Positions 13,252 through 34,021 of a stretch of 64,000 nucleotides of DNA are shown here, piece by piece. Numbering within the stretch: position 1 is the stretch's first letter; each line of letters starts with the position of its first letter. The translations under genes and the position numbers were made by a program. The DNA is taken from positions 93,752 to 157,751 of the IMG/VR virus record IMGVR_UViG_3300037461_000469. One strand, given 5' to 3'. Source of the stretch: a virus (Duplodnaviria; Heunggongvirae; Uroviricota; Caudoviricetes). The notes beneath the pieces are model-generated. The model saw only the letters and a program-made list of their open reading frames with translations, was not told the origin of the DNA and searched no databases.

Positions 13252-14616
13252 TTACAGAGCAGAGTTGCGAACGCTTACCACCGCGTAATATTTTTCTGTG
13301 TCCAAAAGTTGCGTTACGATGGCGTAACGGCTACCCAACGAGAGTAGTGGGTGGAAGTCATGTGGCGAGATGGTCTTCATCATCATCACTGGGATGTATG
13401 GGCAATAGAGGATACCTGAGTCGAAACTCTTCTTTCCCTTGTAACCCATCAAGATGTAACCAACCTCTTTGTCTACGTTGTTTGCAGGTGCTTCCCAATA
13501 CAGGTCAAGGTAAACCTTAACCTTACCGGATTCGATTGTACCCAAGTACACAACGCCTTCACCGCCCTCGTAAGGCTCGAAGCCATCGACAGGCTGAACT
13601 GCGCTGTAGTCAAAGGCCTTGATTGCTGACAAGATTGAAGCAACTTCCGAAGACACAACCATCCAATTTGCACGTCCTCTACGAGTCTGATGACCGATGT
13701 AGTTCAATGCTTTGACGATTGCGTGATAGAGAGTCTTGTACTTTTCTTCCTGCCAACGACCATCCGTTGAAGCCAAGTCCCAAGTGAACAAGCCATTGGT
13801 TGTACCAAGATTGTATGCGGCCAAAATCAACTCACGGTCAATCTCTGCCTGAATCTGGTACGAGAGGAAGTCAACAATTTCCTGTTCAAGATTCAACGAG
13901 TGAACCTTCTTGATGTCGTCAACTGCTTCCTGCGACCAATTTGCTTTCAACTTACGAGTGCGAGCCTCGATAAGTCTGTTGATAATTTTGAGCGAACCTT
14001 CCGAATAAGGATACACACCGCCTGTACCATCAGGTGCGTTACCGTAGGTAGCACCAGGGGTCTGCAAGATATCCGAAAGCAATTCACCGCGGTCATTTCT
14101 CAAACCGAAACCGCCTGTGTTGGCAGTTGCATCGTCTACGGCACTCTCGTAGGTTGCGTTGTTCCAATCACCCGAATAGACAGGGTTCAAATTGGTCGAA
14201 CCTGGGATGTATGCCTGAGAGTCAGCGGTTGTGGTGTACACACGCCCTGTTACGGGGTCTGTCCACGTTACGGTTGTGTCATAAACCCAACGAAGGGTAA
14301 ATGCCATACCGACTGGGCCTTCCATCGCCTGAACGCCAAAGATTTCATTGGCAATCAGTTGTGGCATGATACGGCGAACCATAGGAATCATCAACTTTGG
14401 GAACTTGTCGATGTCGCTTCCCGGTGTAGGCGAAGTGCCTGGTCCGAAGCCGTAGCCTGAAATGGTGCTTTCACGAAGGGAAGTTCGCATCTCGCCTTCT
14501 TGGTTTTCAAGAACGATTGCGGTCATGTCTCTGGTTTCGTCATTTTTAATTCCCTTCAATAGACGAGACCATTTTTCACGAAGTCTCTTTAACTTCTGTT
14601 CTCCTGTTCCGTACAT
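13252..14616 (-). CDS. Major capsid protein, T4 gp23-like
   Basis: IPMVRRIMPQLIANEIFGVQAMEGPVG, ARTRKLKANWSQE, EIDRE, RRGRAN, GYKG, YCPYIP, SRY motifs; strong terminator. Confidence 0.97.
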   Translation of the reverse strand: MYGTGEQKLKRLREKWSRLLKGIKNDETRDMTAIVLENQEGEMRTSLRESTISGYGFGPGTSPTPGSDIDKFPKLMIPMVRRIMPQLIANEIFGVQAMEGPVGMAFTLRWVYDTTVTWTDPVTGRVYTTTADSQAYIPGSTNLNPVYSGDWNNATYESAVDDATANTGGFGLRNDRGELLSDILQTPGATYGNAPDGTGGVYPYSEGSLKIINRLIEARTRKLKANWSQEAVDDIKKVHSLNLEQEIVDFLSYQIQAEIDRELILAAYNLGTTNGLFTWDLASTDGRWQEEKYKTLYHAIVKALNYIGHQTRRGRANWMVVSSEVASILSAIKAFDYSAVQPVDGFEPYEGGEGVVYLGTIESGKVKVYLDLYWEAPANNVDKEVGYILMGYKGKKSFDSGILYCPYIPVMMMKTISPHDFHPLLSLGSRYAIVTQLLDTEKYYAVVSVRNSAL

Positions 14617-26331: not shown

Positions 26332-28947
26332 TTACACTCCTAGTTTTTGCGTTACCGCTTTTTTCTTTTTGATTCGATTGACGATGTTCAACTTGCTCTT
26401 GTCAACCAACTGCGTCTTCGCTAGGAAGAGTTTGTAGTGCAAGTCCTCGTCAATCAGTTGGATTTTCTTCACCAAAAAATCCTGAAAATATTTGTCGTAA
26501 TCGATTTCGAATTTCAGGTTCAGTTCGGGGTCGTAGTGAATGATTTCTCGGTGGTCTTTGACGAACAGGATGTTCACCGTCTCGCCCCGCTTGATTGTCG
26601 TGTTGGAATTGCGGATGGCTCGGACGTGTTGAACCCCTGTGTCGTACTCTTCCATCCTCTTGCTCATCTTTTTGCGGATAACAAGGTCGATTGCCGACTG
26701 ACTCTTCAGGTCAACCTTGACCTTTTTGCAGAACGCCCTGAGTGTCTCCACGTCCCCGTAGTGGGTCAGGATGGTACTGTACAGGTTCATCAGCACCTTC
26801 TTGAAGAAAGTTGGTGTATCGTCCTTGACGGCTTCGAAGCCCTTGATGTACAGTCGCTCTTCCTTCAAGACCTTGCCTTTGAAGTACTTCAAAAATCCGA
26901 CTTGCTTTTTCTTTGCGGGAGCAAGCAGAAGTTTGGAAAACGACTTTTCGAACACGGTCTTCATAATGTGCGAGTCGAGAACCTTCCTGTTCTTGGTGAA
27001 TTTTTCCAAGAACTCAGGTAGTCCTTTGTTGAACAAATCCTGCAAGGCTTTCGACTTGTCGATGGTCTGCTCAAAACTGTCGGCTTCGATTTTGATAAAG
27101 ATGGAGTCCGTGTCTCCCGTCAAAATCCTGTAGCCCTGTTCTTCTGCGGCGTTCTTGACGTAGCGCAACGTTTCACGGGCAACGTAGGTAACGCAAGCCG
27201 CAACCCGTTGGTCGTAAAGGATAAATCCTCTGTAGCCTAGAACGCCGTACAGGGCGTTGCAAGTTGCCTTGAAGCACGATTCCATGTCGTTGACGATTTT
27301 AAACTCTTGCGAGTTCCCATCGAACTGCATTTTGCGCTGAGTAAGTTTGTCCCGTTCGTTAATCAGCAGTTGCGACAGTTGCGGAACCACACCACGCTTT
27401 TTCGTGGTGAACATGATTTTGCCGATTTTGATGTCGGTCTGCGGGTCGTAGTCCTTCAACTCTTCGATGATGGTCTCCTTCGAAAGATTGAGCGAGACCA
27501 TGATGGTCGGGTACAGGCGTGAGAAGTCGTACACCGAAACGTTTTCGAACAGCCCTGGCACGGTGTCCAACACCAACGCCCCTTCGAACGTGCTGTCCAA
27601 GTTCTGCTTGTGTTTCGAAGGGAACTTGAACTGCTTGAAGCGTTGGTGAATCAGCGTTTCCAAGAAGCGGCTGTTGAAGTAGACGTTTTCGTAGGCTTGC
27701 GGAGCAATCTTCTGATACAGCATCGGGAACTCGATAATTTTCTGCATCTGTGCGATTTTCTCGGTAAGGTAAACGTCCTGAACGTTGTACTTAATCAACT
27801 TGGTCAGGTCGTTCTCTTCCCACAACACGTCCACGCCTTCGTGTTCGATTTTCTTTTCGTTAAACAAGTGCTTGGCTACGGCATCCAACGTCCACGCAAT
27901 CGGCTTGTTCTCCACGATAATCCACTTGGCGTAACGAAGGTAGTCCCACAGGATTACTTCGTGGCAGTAGTAGGATTTTTCGCCGTCCTTGCCGATGCTC
28001 TCGTAGACTTCGGAAAGAAACGGCGTGAAGTCCACCTCCAACTTTTTGCTTCGGTGCAAGAGGTAGGGGACATCGAAGAAGTCGGCGTTCCAACCGCCTA
28101 GCAAGTCCACTTCCAACTTCGCCATCGCCGCAAAGAAGTGGGTGAGCATCTTGGCTTCGTCTTCGAACTCAAAGATTTTCTCCGTCTTGAACTGCGACTT
28201 GTCGTAGGTTTGGTCGTGTCGCTTCTTCAAAATCCACACGAAATTCTTGTCGTAGGTGTTGACGTAGGCCACGATGGAAACGATTGGCTCAGGCGTGTTG
28301 ATTGTGTCGAGCGACAGGTTCGTTTCGATGTCGAACGTGGCGTAGGTTAGCAGTCTCGTGTGGGCGATGTTCGGGTAGTTGTCGAAGTAGAACAAGTCCT
28401 TGGAGCGCAAGTGGTCTTCGTAGGTCTGCTCAAAGGTCTGATACTCTTTCGGCACTTTCTTCAACCGCTTGCCATCGTAAGAGAGGAACTCGCCGTCAGG
28501 GTCGGCAACGTACTTGATGTTCGCCTTGTGCGTGTTCCTAGCCTTGATTTTCTTGAAGTCGAGATTCCGATAAAAGTATGCCTTGTCCGTAACTCGGACG
28601 AGTGCGAAACGGGAGAAGTAGTTGTTCAACTTCTCCCGCAACTCCTTGATTTTGGTTGTGGCTTCCTTTTTCTCGGTCTTGTCGTAATCCTTGTAGTTTT
28701 TCAGAGAGACGAACATCTGCCCGTCTTGGTCTTTGAAAAACTTTCCAAAATCCTTGTCGGGGAATTTGCGGTAAAGCAAATTCGCTCCAAACAGAACAAC
28801 TAGGTTTGCGTCCAACCCTTTCGCATCAGCCTCAAAAACGTGGCTGTAGACTTGCGGGTTGAATTTTTTCAACAACTTCGTTTTGATGAAGTCATCGTTC
28901 TTCCCAAATTGTTCCTTCTCTGAAACGAAAATAATATGTTTAGACAT
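26332..28947 (-). CDS. Family B DNA polymerase with 3'-5' exonuclease (gp43 role)
   Basis: Exo DIETN, GWNADFFD, YNVQDV; Pol YDFSRLYP, KATCNALYG, GDTDS; no intein-sized insert. Confidence 0.95.
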   Translation of the reverse strand: MSKHIIFVSEKEQFGKNDDFIKTKLLKKFNPQVYSHVFEADAKGLDANLVVLFGANLLYRKFPDKDFGKFFKDQDGQMFVSLKNYKDYDKTEKKEATTKIKELREKLNNYFSRFALVRVTDKAYFYRNLDFKKIKARNTHKANIKYVADPDGEFLSYDGKRLKKVPKEYQTFEQTYEDHLRSKDLFYFDNYPNIAHTRLLTYATFDIETNLSLDTINTPEPIVSIVAYVNTYDKNFVWILKKRHDQTYDKSQFKTEKIFEFEDEAKMLTHFFAAMAKLEVDLLGGWNADFFDVPYLLHRSKKLEVDFTPFLSEVYESIGKDGEKSYYCHEVILWDYLRYAKWIIVENKPIAWTLDAVAKHLFNEKKIEHEGVDVLWEENDLTKLIKYNVQDVYLTEKIAQMQKIIEFPMLYQKIAPQAYENVYFNSRFLETLIHQRFKQFKFPSKHKQNLDSTFEGALVLDTVPGLFENVSVYDFSRLYPTIMVSLNLSKETIIEELKDYDPQTDIKIGKIMFTTKKRGVVPQLSQLLINERDKLTQRKMQFDGNSQEFKIVNDMESCFKATCNALYGVLGYRGFILYDQRVAACVTYVARETLRYVKNAAEEQGYRILTGDTDSIFIKIEADSFEQTIDKSKALQDLFNKGLPEFLEKFTKNRKVLDSHIMKTVFEKSFSKLLLAPAKKKQVGFLKYFKGKVLKEERLYIKGFEAVKDDTPTFFKKVLMNLYSTILTHYGDVETLRAFCKKVKVDLKSQSAIDLVIRKKMSKRMEEYDTGVQHVRAIRNSNTTIKRGETVNILFVKDHREIIHYDPELNLKFEIDYDKYFQDFLVKKIQLIDEDLHYKLFLAKTQLVDKSKLNIVNRIKKKKAVTQKLGV

Positions 28948-29525: not shown

Positions 29526-29617
29526 ACCCTCCCGTAGTCGAAAATAGTGTAGGTAATCTTGGGAAACGGGAGTTCCCAAGAAAAGGTGCTACCTTTCGTC
29601 CCTACACTATTATTTAT
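29526..29617 (-). ncRNA. Structured cis leader RNA, copy B
   Basis: Outer arms 29544-53/29601-10 (10 bp perfect); hairpin 29558-65/29573-80; loop CTCCCGT (minus) complementary to ACGGGAG at 29529-35; ATAAATA at 29611-17. Confidence 0.75.
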
Positions 29618-29843
29618 TGTCTTCAAACTGTTCTGTAGTAAAATAAAATCTGCGACAAGTGTAAGATTTAGGTAAAATTTCTTTAAAATATGAACAAGTG
29701 GAACAACAGGTACTTTTTAATTCTGGAAAATGGATTAATACAAATTCCATACCGTTGAGTTTAAAAAGACCCTTCTGCTTGGAGTCCATCTTGTCCACGA
29801 GTGGGCAAGGGTCATAAAGGCTTTCGTTTTTATTTTTAGCCAT
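29610..29843 (-). CDS. Small Cys-rich protein, possible divergent member of the adjacent paralog array
   Basis: CPLVDK...H...CCSTCSYF; own promoter motif at 29863-29873. Confidence 0.6.
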   Translation of the reverse strand: MAKNKNESLYDPCPLVDKMDSKQKGLFKLNGMEFVLIHFPELKSTCCSTCSYFKEILPKSYTCRRFYFTTEQFEDNK

Positions 29844-29863: not shown

Positions 29864-30256
29864 TTATACCACAAACGGTTGCAAAACAGCGGAACCTGCG
29901 GAAGTTCCCGATACAAGGGTGGAATATTTATAACTTGTTGGGGTGTAATAGACGGTGTAGTTATCGGTGGTAATGTCTCCCCAATACGGCCCACCGCTTG
30001 TGTTCGGCGTAGTCGTGGTGATGATGTACGGATTGGAAGGTTGATGGGGTTGGGGTTGAGGTGGCGGCGTGTACGGAATATACGTCCACGGCGTAAGCAC
30101 GGATTGGTCGAAAAATCGGCAACTCTTGCAACACCCACACAACTCATAAGCCTCGTTATTATTCTTTTCCTGATGGCCTCGGCAGATGCCGTTGCGACCA
30201 TGCAGAATGAGTTTCAGTTTTTGCTTGTCAGAAAAGGGACATCCTTTTGGAATCAT
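29864..30256 (-). CDS. Array member 6: Cys/His module plus weak MCP-like tail
   Basis: MIPKGCPFSDKQKL...LH...C...CKSC; FDQSVL..TYIPYTP weakly like MCP FDSGILYCPYIP; AGGAGG RBS. Confidence 0.75.
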   Translation of the reverse strand: MIPKGCPFSDKQKLKLILHGRNGICRGHQEKNNNEAYELCGCCKSCRFFDQSVLTPWTYIPYTPPPQPQPHQPSNPYIITTTTPNTSGGPYWGDITTDNYTVYYTPTSYKYSTLVSGTSAGSAVLQPFVV

Positions 30257-30270
30257 TTCATGGTTCCTCC

Positions 30271-30480
30271 TTATTCTATTTTTATTGGATTACTCTCACT
30301 CGTTAAGAATTTTACCCAAGACTGCATCGCTTCATCCATCATTCTGTACTCGGCTGTCCAAGCACTAGAGTATGGGCAAGTTTTACAACGCAAAGGGTCA
30401 GCACCAAGAATGTTACATTTCCCCTTCAGGGTTGCTTCTAATTTTCCTTTGTTGTTCAGCAGACAAGTTTTAGGTATCAT
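30271..30480 (-). CDS. Array member 5: Cys module plus weak MCP-like tail
   Basis: MIPKTCLLNNKGKL...C...CKTC; SAWTAE...WVKFLTSE weakly like MCP ANWSQE...IVDFLSYQ; ATGA-coupled. Confidence 0.75.
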   Translation of the reverse strand: MIPKTCLLNNKGKLEATLKGKCNILGADPLRCKTCPYSSAWTAEYRMMDEAMQSWVKFLTSESNPIKIE

Positions 30481-30914
30481 ATTTTAAATATATCCCAAAT
30501 CCTTTTCCAAATGCTCGGCTTGGGTTTAACAACAGGCTTGGTTTCTTCAAGGTCATCTACTATCATCCAAGTAGGTGATATGCCGTTGTAGGCATTACTG
30601 TTAAGATTTAAAGAATGGGTGTGCATGGGCATCGATGTTTGACCTGACCAATAAGGAGAGGCGGCACTTGCTCCAGGTAATCCTAGTTGCGACCCACGCA
30701 TCGGTATATTCGGATTTGCTTGAATTGCTGCCATTAAATTCCCATACAACAGGTCGTGTTTCCTCTGCCGTTCTTCAAGAATCTGACAACCCGCACAATC
30801 ACAATCAAGGGCTGAATTTTGTGCTTCTTCTCTCATCAGAAATACGAAACAGTCGTGATGAAGGGTAGCCCACAACTTGTATTTATCACTTAGCGGACAT
30901 TTTTTTCCTAACAT
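30477..30914 (-). CDS. Array member 4: Cys/His module plus weak MCP-like segment
   Basis: MLGKKCPLSDKYKL...LHHDC...CAGC; RKHDLLYGNLMAA weakly like MCP EKYKTLYHAIVKA. Confidence 0.75.
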   Translation of the reverse strand: MLGKKCPLSDKYKLWATLHHDCFVFLMREEAQNSALDCDCAGCQILEERQRKHDLLYGNLMAAIQANPNIPMRGSQLGLPGASAASPYWSGQTSMPMHTHSLNLNSNAYNGISPTWMIVDDLEETKPVVKPKPSIWKRIWDIFKI

Positions 30915-31170
30915 TTTTCTTCCCTTTATAAACCCATTTCATTTTAAATATCGTTCCTACTGGACCCGCCATTGGCTGAACGTTGAAAATATCGTTGGCT
31001 ATCAGTTTCGGAATGGCTCTTCGTACAGCGGGGATTTTGAATTTGAGAGAGTAAGGACACTTCGCACAACATTCTTTCTCTCCGAAATGCTCTGCGGAGT
31101 ATTTGCAATCTCCGTGCATCGTTACGTAAAACTTGTCTCTGTCGCTGAGTGGGCATCCTTTGTTTATCAT
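30886..31170 (-). CDS. Array member 3: Cys/His module plus MCP residues 77-112 (Gol region)
   Basis: MINKGCPLSDRDKF...MHGDC...CAKC; IPAVRRAIPKLIANDIFNVQPMAGPVGTIFKMKWVY is 23/36 identical to this phage's MCP. Confidence 0.85.
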   Translation of the reverse strand: MINKGCPLSDRDKFYVTMHGDCKYSAEHFGEKECCAKCPYSLKFKIPAVRRAIPKLIANDIFNVQPMAGPVGTIFKMKWVYKGKKNVRKKMSAK

Positions 31171-31361
31171 TCTACTGCCCTTCTTATAAATTCGTTATCA
31201 ATTTCCTTTGCCAACTCTTCGCTCATTATTTTAACAAGTTCATCTTCTAGATTAAGGCTACATCCCTTTAAACAATTAGGATGGGTATGAAGGGTACACT
31301 CGTGGTGAAGGATTACGTAGAGTTTGTCTTTGTCGCTGAGAGGACAGTCTTTGCGAATCAT
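31167..31361 (-). CDS. Array member 2: Cys/His module plus MCP residues 240-267
   Basis: Start at MIRKDCPLSDKDKL (ATGA overlap at 31358-31361); SLNLEDELVKIMSEELAKEIDNEFIRRA is 14/28 identical to MCP. Confidence 0.82.
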   Translation of the reverse strand: MIRKDCPLSDKDKLYVILHHECTLHTHPNCLKGCSLNLEDELVKIMSEELAKEIDNEFIRRAVE

Positions 31362-31576
31362 TTTTTTGCCTTCATAATTTGAATCGGGATGTATGGAGTA
31401 TAAAATACTCCCGCATCCATAATATTTGCGAGAAAAGAACATCCATCACAACGGTGTCCTTTAGGCCAAACTGAAGAGTCAAGGCTATCCCATCCTTTTG
31501 TATAACCCCGACAACTATTGTGTAGGATTGACCATAGTTTTTCTTTATTACCAAAGGGACACGTCTTGGGTATCAT
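31358..31576 (-). CDS. Array member 1: Cys/His module plus MCP residues 399-414
   Basis: MIPKTCPFGNKEKL...LHNSC...CDGC; DAGVFYTPYIPIQIMK is 9/16 identical to MCP; ATGA-coupled to gp62-like gene. Confidence 0.82.
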   Translation of the reverse strand: MIPKTCPFGNKEKLWSILHNSCRGYTKGWDSLDSSVWPKGHRCDGCSFLANIMDAGVFYTPYIPIQIMKAKK

Positions 31577-31947
31577 TCATACCTCTGTTTAATCTCCTTC
31601 TTCTCTTCCTTCGTCAGCAACTCGGCGTAATCTTTCGCAACCTTCGTAGAAACTTTATAAACTTTCTTCAAATATTCAACCTCTATCAAGTTTACTTCCT
31701 TCGTCTTGGTTGACTTTATCCACCCTTTCGGATAGACCCCTTTGTAGAGGATGCAGAACAATTTGTACTGCGCTTCCTTCGGCAAACTCCAAAGCACATT
31801 CAGCAGATTGGCATACTTCTCGTACCCTGCGTAGTAGTAGAGCCGATTGAGTAAGTACGGCTGGAACTCCTTCATTTCGTCAGGGTTCAACGGTTCGCCC
31901 TGTTGAATCTGCTTTGTGAACCGAAAAGGGCTATTCGTGTTTTCCAT
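31573..31947 (-). CDS. Clamp loader small subunit, T4 gp62-like
   Basis: FQPYLLNR...AN.LN...QY...W.K...Y.VS.K.A..Y..LLT.E pattern; lies downstream of gp44-like. Confidence 0.75.
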   Translation of the reverse strand: MENTNSPFRFTKQIQQGEPLNPDEMKEFQPYLLNRLYYYAGYEKYANLLNVLWSLPKEAQYKLFCILYKGVYPKGWIKSTKTKEVNLIEVEYLKKVYKVSTKVAKDYAELLTKEEKKEIKQRYE

Positions 31948-32185
31948 TCCTACCTAATTTTATCACACGCACTTTGTAATCCTCAATCGTGCGCTCCCTG
32001 TTCTCAGGGGCGTAATAAAATTCAACGAAAGCCTGACAACCTGGGCAGATGCCGTGAAAATTGTTGACTTCGTTAAAGTTTACGATGTCGAAAGAACCTT
32101 CGCCGTCCTTCGTCTGAAATTGTGAGATTAACTGATTACAGGTAGGGCAGTTGATTTGAAAATTGACGTAATTATAAACACCCAT
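31931..32185 (-). CDS. Small Zn-finger phage protein
   Basis: MGVYNYV...CPTC...FQTKD...CPGC. Confidence 0.6.
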   Translation of the reverse strand: MGVYNYVNFQINCPTCNQLISQFQTKDGEGSFDIVNFNEVNNFHGICPGCQAFVEFYYAPENRERTIEDYKVRVIKLGRNGKHE

Positions 32186-32507: not shown

Positions 32508-33368
32508 TTATTGTTTGAGGCGGTGCAGTTCGGCAACAAATCCCACGAAGTTAATTTCCTTGTCCACGCACAGAGCGTCCTGATAAGCGTACTTCGCCAA
32601 CAGGATTGCCTTCTGCGGGTCTTCCGTCCTTTCGAACAGGAAGCGATACAGGCCATCGTAATCCGTGCTGTGTCCCGCAAAGTACCGTTTCAATTCTACG
32701 ATGTTCCCACCCTTGATGATTTTCCAAATCTCTCCGAACGTCTCTTCGGGCAGTTCCAACTTCCCCGACATCGAATACCGCTGAAGGTAATTCAACGCCC
32801 TGCGCAAGTCTCCCCCGCACAGGCGGTAAACCGTATCTAGGGCTTCGGGTTCGTACTTAACCTTCTCCTTTTCAAGCACTCCTTTGAGGTACTTTAGCGT
32901 TTCCTCCTTGGTTGGCTTGGTGAAGTTAAACAGCGTACAGCGGCTTCGGATGGCTTCGCTAAATTTATAAAGATGATTGGTCGCAAAAATAAAACTTACT
33001 ACTTTGTGATACCTCTCAGTTATTTCTTTAAGGGCTTTCATCGCATCTGGAGATAAATTTTCACTTTCATCCATAAAAACTATTTTTCTCTTAGAATTAA
33101 ATGCCTTGACTTGGATGAAATCTTTTATTTGTCCACGAACAACATCAATTGACCTATCATCACTACCATTTAATCTTAAATATTCAGCGTCTAATTCTCG
33201 AATAAATATTAAGGCTGTAGTTGTTTTTCCGACACCTGGTGGACCGTAAAAAATTAGATTTGGAATAAACTTGGATTGTAAATATTGCTTAAAAGTATTT
33301 CGTTGTTCTTCCGAAAGTATCATTTCATCTAAATTTTTAGGTCTGTAAAATTCATTCCAAATTTTCAT
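32508..33368 (-). CDS. Clamp loader large subunit, T4 gp44 / RFC-like AAA+
   Basis: WNEFYRPK, GPPGVGKTT, NGSDDR.ID, DE, SRC motifs; start at ATGA overlap with endonuclease stop. Confidence 0.93.
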   Translation of the reverse strand: MKIWNEFYRPKNLDEMILSEEQRNTFKQYLQSKFIPNLIFYGPPGVGKTTTALIFIRELDAEYLRLNGSDDRSIDVVRGQIKDFIQVKAFNSKRKIVFMDESENLSPDAMKALKEITERYHKVVSFIFATNHLYKFSEAIRSRCTLFNFTKPTKEETLKYLKGVLEKEKVKYEPEALDTVYRLCGGDLRRALNYLQRYSMSGKLELPEETFGEIWKIIKGGNIVELKRYFAGHSTDYDGLYRFLFERTEDPQKAILLAKYAYQDALCVDKEINFVGFVAELHRLKQ

Positions 33369-34021
33369 TTTTCTAAATATTCTCCTATCCAACCTTTGTG
33401 ATGTGGTCGTTTATTTTTAAGTACATCACAAATATGACCTCTATTTAAGTCGTGTTCTTTACAAAAAAGAGAATAAGATTTTATTTCATATTTTTTCCCT
33501 TCAGGAGAAATTAATCTGATTAATTTGGCTCGTGGGTGTAATTCCCCTCTGAAATCTGCGTGGTTATCTTTCATATGTTTTTTGTGTAATTCTGACTTAG
33601 GGCCTTTCATTTTTTCAATTGCTTTTAAAGGTCTGCGGATTCCTGTGTATTTTTCTTTCAATCTTTCTTTAATCTCTTCTTTACATTTTCTACCCAAACA
33701 ACCATTACCACCCTTTGTTAAATTCCACCCTGTTCTTTGTTCGGGGTCGTAGGTCTTTAATTCATCAATCCAAAACATTTCTCTTTCGTCTAAAATAAAT
33801 TTGAGATTTTTTGGGACTTCGTGATGAACCTCAATAACACGAAAACATTTTGGTTGAAAATATTTTCTCAAAGAGTTATGGAAATGGAAATTTGAATTTT
33901 TCGTTGTGAAATGTTCTTTTATTCTTCTTTTTAAATTTACGGCTTGGCCTACATAACCTTTACCACTAATCGTAAAAAGGTAAATGAATCCCCAAATCTT
34001 TTTATTTTCGTCTTGGTTCAT
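33365..34021 (-). CDS. GIY-YIG homing endonuclease with NUMOD-type C-terminus
   Basis: GFIYLFTISGKGYVGQA..L.RR.KEH...GWNLTKGG; C-terminal NRGHICDVLKNKRPHHKGW. Confidence 0.85.
   Translation of the reverse strand: MNQDENKKIWGFIYLFTISGKGYVGQAVNLKRRIKEHFTTKNSNFHFHNSLRKYFQPKCFRVIEVHHEVPKNLKFILDEREMFWIDELKTYDPEQRTGWNLTKGGNGCLGRKCKEEIKERLKEKYTGIRRPLKAIEKMKGPKSELHKKHMKDNHADFRGELHPRAKLIRLISPEGKKYEIKSYSLFCKEHDLNRGHICDVLKNKRPHHKGWIGEYLEK

Follow-up and report, generated by a model that had tools for sequence, protein, structure and literature searches.

A four-cysteine module fused to pieces of the phage's own capsid protein in small genes of an uncultured T4-like phage

Gene order between the clamp loader and the DNA polymerase

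The window, that is, the whole stretch of DNA analysed here (64,000 nucleotides), is part of a 168.8-kb IMG/VR entry from an uncultured T4-like phage (G000). Nearly all genes of the window are carried by the minus strand. In the order of transcription, the gene of the large clamp-loader subunit is followed by that of the small subunit, six small genes (A-F), gene G, a gene for a GIY-YIG homing endonuclease and the DNA polymerase gene (Table 1). Genes A-F share an N-terminal module, M-I-P-K-x-C-P-L-x-D-K-x-K-L...C...C-x-x-C, referred to as the head, to which tails of different kinds are attached.

The small clamp-loader gene and genes A-E are chained by four ATGA stop/start overlaps, and C and D overlap by 29 nt. 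The start of A overlaps the clamp-loader stop in this way, and B does so with both A and C. Since genes A-E are thus translationally coupled to the clamp-loader gene, they are likely to be expressed early or in the middle of infection, together with replication proteins and before the capsid protein. Promoter scans revealed no signal exceeding that of shuffled sequences. A T4-type late-promoter-like sequence, TATAAATA, is found at 29925-29932 (minus strand), within the 3' portion of F and upstream of both gene G and the homing-endonuclease leader; counts of such sequences in the window are not above chance.

There are two further small genes in this interval. Gene G, whose Cys-rich product is of another kind than A-F, is located directly upstream of the DNA polymerase gene at all syntenic loci examined (G003, L016, L017). 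The gene between the two clamp-loader genes is likewise kept at all syntenic loci, and its product has no PHROG or Pfam match.

Table 1. Position and content of the genes discussed in the text, in window coordinates (MCP, major capsid protein; capsid regions I-IV are defined in the text)
Feature	Position	Strand	Content
Large clamp-loader subunit	32508-33392	minus	in the minus-strand run
84-aa protein	31931-32185	minus	two C-x-x-C pairs
Small clamp-loader subunit (gp62-like)	31573..31947	minus	phrog_225; first gene of the translationally coupled run A-E
Gene A (P0001, 72 aa)	31358..31576	minus	4-Cys head and MCP region IV tail
A head, residues 1-49	31430..31576	minus	MIPKxCP..K.KL..L...C (long loop) CxxC
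A tail, residues 54-69	31370..31417	minus	copy of MCP 399-414 (T4 gp23 ~445-460)
Gene B (P0002, 64 aa)	31167..31361	minus	4-Cys head (last pair CxxxC) and MCP region II tail
B tail, residues 35-62	31176..31259	minus	copy of MCP 240-267 (T4 gp23 ~283-310)
Gene C (P0003, 94 aa)	30886..31170, tail 30928-31044	minus	head and copy of MCP 74-112 (T4 gp23 93-131, Gol region)
Gene D (P0004, 145 aa)	30477..30914	minus	head and tail without recognised source
Gene E (P0005, 69 aa)	30271..30480	minus	head and conserved tail ending IKIE, without recognised source
Gene F (P0006, 130 aa)	29864..30256	minus	head, degenerate W-T-Y-I-P-Y motif and Thr/Pro-rich tail
Gene G (77 aa)	29610-29843	minus	Cys-rich protein (C-P-L-V-D-K ... 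C-x-x-C ... C)
DNA polymerase	26332-28947		downstream of A-G and the GIY-YIG homing endonuclease gene
Full-length MCP (P0008, 454 aa)	13252..14616	minus	parent type of the tails

Capsid protein pieces at the ends of genes A-C

Tails of the first three genes are related to the MCP encoded by the same phage, of which both the sequence and the structure model match T4 gp23 structures. Residues 54-69 of A (DAGVFYTPYIPIQIMK) align without gaps with MCP 399-414 (9 of 16 identical, 13 of 16 similar). Residues 35-62 of B correspond to MCP 240-267 (14 of 28 identical) and the tail of C to MCP 74-112 (24 of 39 identical). Significance was estimated from 500 composition-preserving shuffles per tail. Smith-Waterman score is 61 for A (22.8 +/- 3.5 in shuffles, z 11) and 50 for B (24.4 +/- 3.9, z 6.5), while C reaches z 25.8; in all three cases none of the 500 shuffles scored as high. 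Tails of D, E and F gave no significant match to the MCP. Two F-like relatives reach z 4.2-4.7 against MCP 100-167, which is a low-complexity region.

The Pfam Gp23 profile (PF07068, T4-type major capsid or vertex protein) recognises A and B at the same places (A: profile positions 311-330, E 0.014, 15.3 bits; B: positions 168-194, E 0.0033, 17.3 bits). Both scores are under the Gp23 gathering score of 24.4 bits, as expected for 20-27 residues. The threshold is exceeded by gene C (43.2 bits, E 4e-11) and by P0009, an ortholog of B from ENA (54.5 bits). When the protein of gene C was compared with cultured phages, 2,045 places in 2,044 records were matched, and the top-listed matches all fall in annotated major capsid or head protein genes. 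The alignments, shuffles and profile matches together confirm the first-pass annotation, in which the ends of A and B had been assigned to MCP 399-414 and 240-267 and each protein was said to stop within a few residues of its match: A ends 3 residues and B 2 residues past it. Judged by their profile coverage, A and B are capsid fragments and not capsid proteins, and would not comprise the complete HK97-type fold, which consists of P domain, A domain and insertion domain (about 376 profile positions). A second capsid gene that has been split or broken by an intron is ruled out as well, for neighbouring reading frames adjoin each other through ATGA overlaps, and the pieces do not follow the order of the MCP: along the transcript, region IV comes first, then II, then I.

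Using an HMM of the lineage's MCPs, at least 24 small proteins bearing MCP pieces were found; this count includes syntenic proteins from other contigs, and three of the proteins are headless or have a degenerate head. The pieces derive from four discrete regions. Region I (own MCP ~74-112, aligned with T4 gp23 93-131) occurs in 9 proteins, region II (217-267, T4 260-310) in 8 and region III (312-332, T4 369-389) in 2. Region IV (390-414, of which 399-414 aligns with T4 445-460) is found in 4 proteins, and in several weaker cases with only an aromatic-x-P-Y-I/V-P motif. Five of the region II pieces have a nearly identical MCP end point (HMM 274-277).

In T4 gp23, residues 66-105 form a flexible N-terminal region and 132-160 linker 1 of the insertion domain (PMC9546572). 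Region I would accordingly map to the end of the N-terminal arm and the first P-domain strands. It coincides with the Gol region, which binds EF-Tu and has been termed the most conserved part of gp23 (PMC3014915). Region II is likely to comprise two helical elements, namely the short acidic helix and the spine helix over its first two thirds, in addition to a P-domain strand. Gene B retains the spine-helix part only, and the MCP model also predicts a helix there (243-274). Region III probably corresponds to an A-domain strand and helix, whereas region IV, the tail of A, can be placed by HK97-fold topology at the end of the P loop and the next P-domain strand. This mapping is derived from the T4 alignment and the cited papers, as the structure model of the MCP has pLDDT 53 and is unreliable at region IV.

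Ala275 of T4 gp23 is part of the short acidic P-domain helix and contacts the neighbouring capsomer near the quasi-threefold axis; other quasi-threefold contacts in the T4 head are formed by P loops and P-domain strands (PMC9546572, PMC9958956). Mapping on gp23, which the first-pass annotation had suggested and which was made here by sequence alignment, places three of the four regions in one neighbourhood, the P domain near the contacts between capsomers. It is therefore conceivable that the tails take the place of strands or helices where unassembled subunits of capsid or sheath meet, with the outcome that assembly of co-infecting related phages is poisoned or premature polymerisation of the phage's own subunits restrained. 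We consider this role doubtful but rank it second, after mimicry towards host factors (see below). In its favour, the three P-domain regions take part in joining capsomers to each other close to the quasi-threefold axes, and A275 falls within the full B-type piece. However, the phage's own MCP bears the same invariant residues, so that such tails would be expected to poison the phage itself.

Both segments in A and B had also been described as among the most conserved gp23 motifs. This is true for MCP 399-414, which ranks 13th of 439 windows in an alignment of 120 MCP sequences dominated by two clades, but much less so for 240-267, which is above average but only 65th of 427. Of the invariant MCP positions in their own segments, A keeps five of six and B four of eight. 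The pieces do come from conserved structural elements, as had been proposed when they were called conserved core elements. Emphasis on the most conserved ones is partly an ascertainment effect, because after such divergence only pieces under MCP-like constraint are still recognisable.

The head family, age of the tails and homologous arrays

To describe the family, the head profile was compared with the genome of the phage and with protein collections. A and B score 68.5 and 62.9 bits, respectively, and are thus both members. In total, 15 members are found in the G000 genome. Some of them make up a second array (genome 29.3-30.5 kb), in which one protein has a copy of MCP 312-332 at its end (z 10.1). 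There is also a lone member with a tail matching MCP 396-422 (z 7.1). Search of 1.84 billion representative proteins gave 82 matches (about 80 clusters), all but two of which are 57-153 aa long. Nearly all of them have the head at the extreme N-terminus, followed by a variable C-terminal tail. No head match was found in 50,697 cultured phage records. Among 76 family representatives, the Pfam Gp23 profile matches 10 and the tail-sheath C-terminal domain 9, and the sheath-type tails span almost the entire domain (PF17482 positions 12-103 of 104). In many members the source of the tail is not recognisable, and PHROGs matches to tails concern only small families that are unnamed or misnamed.

Cysteines C6, C22, C43 and C46 are invariant across the 82 aligned head sequences. 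The head of about 40 residues is therefore probably a zinc clasp serving as a stable handle, a prediction made from the four invariant cysteines. Its AF2 model is mainly helical with low confidence (pLDDT 63); Foldseek comparison of this model with the PDB gave no match, and Pfam and PHROGs searches gave no match to a zinc-finger family. ESM Atlas search returned clusters of short Gp23-domain proteins with scores of about 0.8, which we treat as a lead only.

A tree of the heads is poorly resolved. Tail types cluster on it (22 label changes as compared to 39.8 in shuffles) but do not form single clades, and on heads 59% identical to each other either a sheath domain or a capsid piece of region II can be found. 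Since related heads bear different tails and tail types are not single clades, heads and tails recombine as modules. Other tail types recur too. One of them, N-x-G-V-T-F-D-A-E-T ..., and the E-type tail ending I-K-I-E are conserved across phages (family representatives P0030, P0046 and P0055; L018 4195-4721). A further member, some 15.3 kb ahead of the window (genome 78168-78500), has a repeated S-G-W-S-G-Y-S-G tail. This tail matches repeat proteins of the tail-fibre region (E down to 5e-17, low complexity) and may be fibre-derived.

Fusion of one conserved module to varied virion-derived pieces would be expected if the pieces were address tags, by which the 4-Cys head is recruited into the prohead or onto the virion and carried or injected as cargo. 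This is quite unlikely. The conserved part looks like a folded N-terminal domain and not like a short cleavable tag, the genes are located in the replication cluster, and capsid and sheath pieces would direct the same head to different places.

Comparison of the tails with gene 23 at nucleotide level revealed that the copies are old. Tails of A, B and C have nucleotide identities of 0.62, 0.49 and 0.64, respectively; at third positions the values are 0.29-0.38 (near random), and the longest exact run is 11 nt. The tails are thus ancient copies; their recent capture from the capsid gene is ruled out by this divergence, and the term "captured" used for them in the first-pass annotation is misleading. 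With regard to a possible foreign origin of the pieces, the tails score about equally against the MCP clade of their own phage and against a clade with 35% identity, C being slightly nearer to its own clade. The same data bear on the idea that the pieces are silent gene-conversion cassettes, a store of variant gene 23 segments for escape from sensors. T4-type phages recombine readily, and the copies span conserved segments that could be sensed. Nevertheless, we rejected this idea as highly improbable because the copies share 49-64% of their nucleotides with gene 23 and exact runs do not exceed 11 nt; moreover, the pieces are kept in frame within translated, coupled reading frames under purifying selection.

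Comparison of G000 with a 223-kb relative (G001) gave dN/dS of 0.41 for A, 0.04 for the B head, 0.29 for E and 0.34 for F, the value for the clamp-loader gene being 0.09. Array genes are thus real coding genes under purifying selection. For the tail of A taken alone, dN/dS between the two phages is not below 1, an estimate based on just 7 changes. Within tail types, conservation of tails is about that of heads. Mean pairwise identity is 0.51 for tails and 0.45 for heads in the C-type, 0.44 and 0.51 in the B-type, and 0.73 and 0.46 in the A-type. In a 239-kb relative, the A-type tail is identical to that of A at 14 of 16 positions, with heads that can barely be aligned. Since synonymous sites are saturated and MCP-like residues are retained nonetheless, resemblance to the MCP has been maintained at the protein level.

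These results make it unlikely that only the head is functional, the tails being leftovers of illegitimate recombination in a hyperplastic region and no mimics of the capsid. Neutral tails would have lost their resemblance to the MCP at the observed saturation. In fact their conservation is close to that of heads, pieces come from the same four MCP regions with recurring end points, and the A tail is almost identical between distant phages. What does fit such an origin is the number of members whose tails have no recognisable source, the exchange of tails between related heads, the removal of tails by deletions in close relatives (see below) and the A-tail dN/dS between G000 and G001, which is not below 1 over its 7 changes.

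Related genes recur at the clamp loader-polymerase site in other phage contigs. Conservation of the pieces among homologous arrays, which the first-pass annotation had named as a test of its inference, is borne out by A-, B- and C-type tails in at least four other phage contigs. At this site, G001 has A, B with a tail reduced to the strand R-x-L-K-A-x-W, and then E and F. The helix of B, together with C and D, is missing as a result of a deletion of about 750 bp (L005 10218-10415 as compared to window 30480-31254), and the A tail has one extra residue within its strand. G001 also carries about 2 kb of additional genes between F and G. In the 239-kb relative, a B-type gene is followed by a C-type gene at the site, and the A-type gene is part of another array. 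The order B then C is thus kept at the clamp loader-polymerase site in distant relatives. The B ortholog P0009 has the full piece (MCP 217-267), from which the B of the window differs by about 24 residues fewer, in frame, namely the P-domain strand and the short acidic helix. The helix of B that the first-pass annotation singled out by its EIDRE motif is indeed MCP-derived, but EID-x-E is not universal, being deleted in G001 and diverged in the 239-kb relative. Metagenome scan with B-type sequences matched one locus.

Arrangement of the pieces differs in further contigs. On a small contig (G003), they occur without heads, one reading frame having region II and another region I fused directly to region IV; an F-like gene and the polymerase gene follow. 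These headless frames (L008 4432-4943) have in common, where the pieces join or at the end, a short peptide P-R-L-D-I-I-R, which may be a scar of recombination or a tag of another sort. On another contig, single C-type and sheath-type genes are dispersed among helicase, exonuclease and primase genes. An ortholog of the region III member is present in a second array of G001 (L006 10678-10929); its first head cysteine is changed from C to R and the capsid-like tail is kept.

Further, the tails were compared with the real capsid proteins of the same phages. MCPs of G000 and G001 are 99.3% identical, yet the content of their arrays differs. The MCP of the 239-kb relative is 90% identical to that of G000 overall and identical in regions I-IV, whereas B and C tails of the two phages have diverged by about 50%. 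The tails thus fail to follow the MCP, their rate of change being far above that of the segments they derive from, and the array is accessory. Strong divergence of B and C tails against a constant MCP would be unexpected if the MCP were their target, and the extra residue in the G001 A tail and the partial dispensability of the array also argue against insertion of the tails at subunit contacts. Such insertion is favoured by sheath-type tails representing the whole sheath C-terminal domain and by the conserved order of B and C.

Possible role of the tails and known systems

Taken together, the tails of the family probably mimic capsid and sheath proteins towards whatever binds those. Competitive mimicry, with each tail occupying the binder of its segment in the unassembled protein, is the simplest mechanism for them. 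As for the partner, we tentatively put first the possibility that A-C are made early and, as mimics of capsid protein not yet assembled, compete for host factors or sensors. In such a mechanism, the 4-Cys head would be the stable handle and the C-terminal tail would present a short and mostly linear segment, an ancient copy from the MCP of its own lineage. In A this segment is the P-loop/P-domain strand, in B the spine helix and in C Gol. Made with replication proteins and ahead of the capsid protein, these mini-proteins would occupy host proteins that engage nascent or unassembled capsid protein. Candidate partners are EF-Tu and chaperones, or else immune sensors comparable to Lit/Gol-EF-Tu or to SecB-like chaperones. 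With the partners occupied, the response to real capsid protein may be blunted or pre-empted.

A host partner is placed first because the tails change while the MCP does not, because the array behaves like an arms-race locus, and because Gol is a stand-alone ligand of a host protein and defences are known that read linear, unfolded stretches of virion proteins. With regions I-IV identical and B and C tails about 50% apart, a changing external partner fits better than an unchanged MCP. Several points speak against this preference. The main one is that in the Lit/Gol and TAC chaperone cases the capsid peptide activates defence, so that a copy would trigger it and not block it. An antagonist role for the head, whose model is of low confidence (pLDDT 63) and without a PDB match, is no more than conjecture. 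Mapping of the pieces to subunit-contact elements fits interference with assembly equally well, and the helix of B, C and D are dispensable in the close relative G001.

A more general proposal is that 4-Cys heads form a peptide display platform, whose interchangeable tails, self-copied from contact elements of capsid and sheath proteins and shown early, neutralise surveillance of nascent virion proteins. In a stronger version, A, B and C would join via their heads into a surrogate capsid P domain. Taken jointly, we hold these two versions to be speculative and rather doubtful. If true, either would represent a new class of counter-defence or assembly control that operates through self-mimicry.

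In the literature, no description was found of phage genes for tagged pieces of capsid or sheath proteins of the same phage, and the family of heads with capsid or sheath pieces is, with respect to the literature found, undescribed. Bacterial immunity is now known to be set off commonly by capsid and tail proteins, and we know of no described phage counter-measure built from pieces of its own virion proteins. The family supplies defined segments of 16-50 residues singled out by evolution. On T4 gp23 these are Gol, the spine helix with the short acidic helix, the A-domain strand-helix and the P-loop strand, to which the sheath C-terminal domain is added; A and B show which capsid segments are retained. 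Capsid and sheath segments can be grafted into T4 and E. coli systems for direct testing. Identity of the partner would reveal which parts of the nascent capsid protein are read by the cell or the assembly line.

Several known systems share individual features with these genes. Mammalian Gag-derived restriction factors such as Fv1 are derivatives of capsid genes kept for capsid-related interactions. They are host-encoded, eukaryotic and consist of full domains in contrast to the pieces of 16-50 residues described here, and thus serve as an analogy only. In T4, internal proteins have a shared short capsid targeting sequence joined to varied cargo; the sequence is N-terminal and is removed by the prohead protease. 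Both cases concern a shared module with a varied partner in T4-type phages, but a tag of about 10 residues differs from a 4-Cys domain of about 40, and here it is the variable part that is a copy of a virion protein. DSAD1 of phage SPbeta, an anti-DSR2 decoy, competes with a virion protein for an immune sensor. It resembles the proposed role of the tails as a phage protein in competition with a virion protein and differs in its origin, since to our knowledge its competitor, the virion protein, is not its source.

SecB-like TAC chaperone sensors are HigC, which acts with lambda gpV, and CmdC, which acts with T4 Gp23. Both read linear, incompletely folded, aromatic-containing strands of virion proteins, and the tails present the same kind of segment, e.g. 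F-Y-x-P-Y-I-P. In contrast to the phage tails, HigC and CmdC belong to host defences, which are activated by their ligands. Another parallel is the Gol-Lit-EF-Tu exclusion system, in which a host protein, EF-Tu, is bound by a short conserved stretch of T4-type capsid protein on its own (PMC3014915). Gol is part of gp23 and was separated from it only experimentally, whereas here stand-alone genes encode the segment fused to a 4-Cys head. Exactly the Gol segment is borne by gene C (own MCP 74-112, equivalent to T4 93-131), while A and B carry other segments of the same protein, the P-loop strand and the spine helix.
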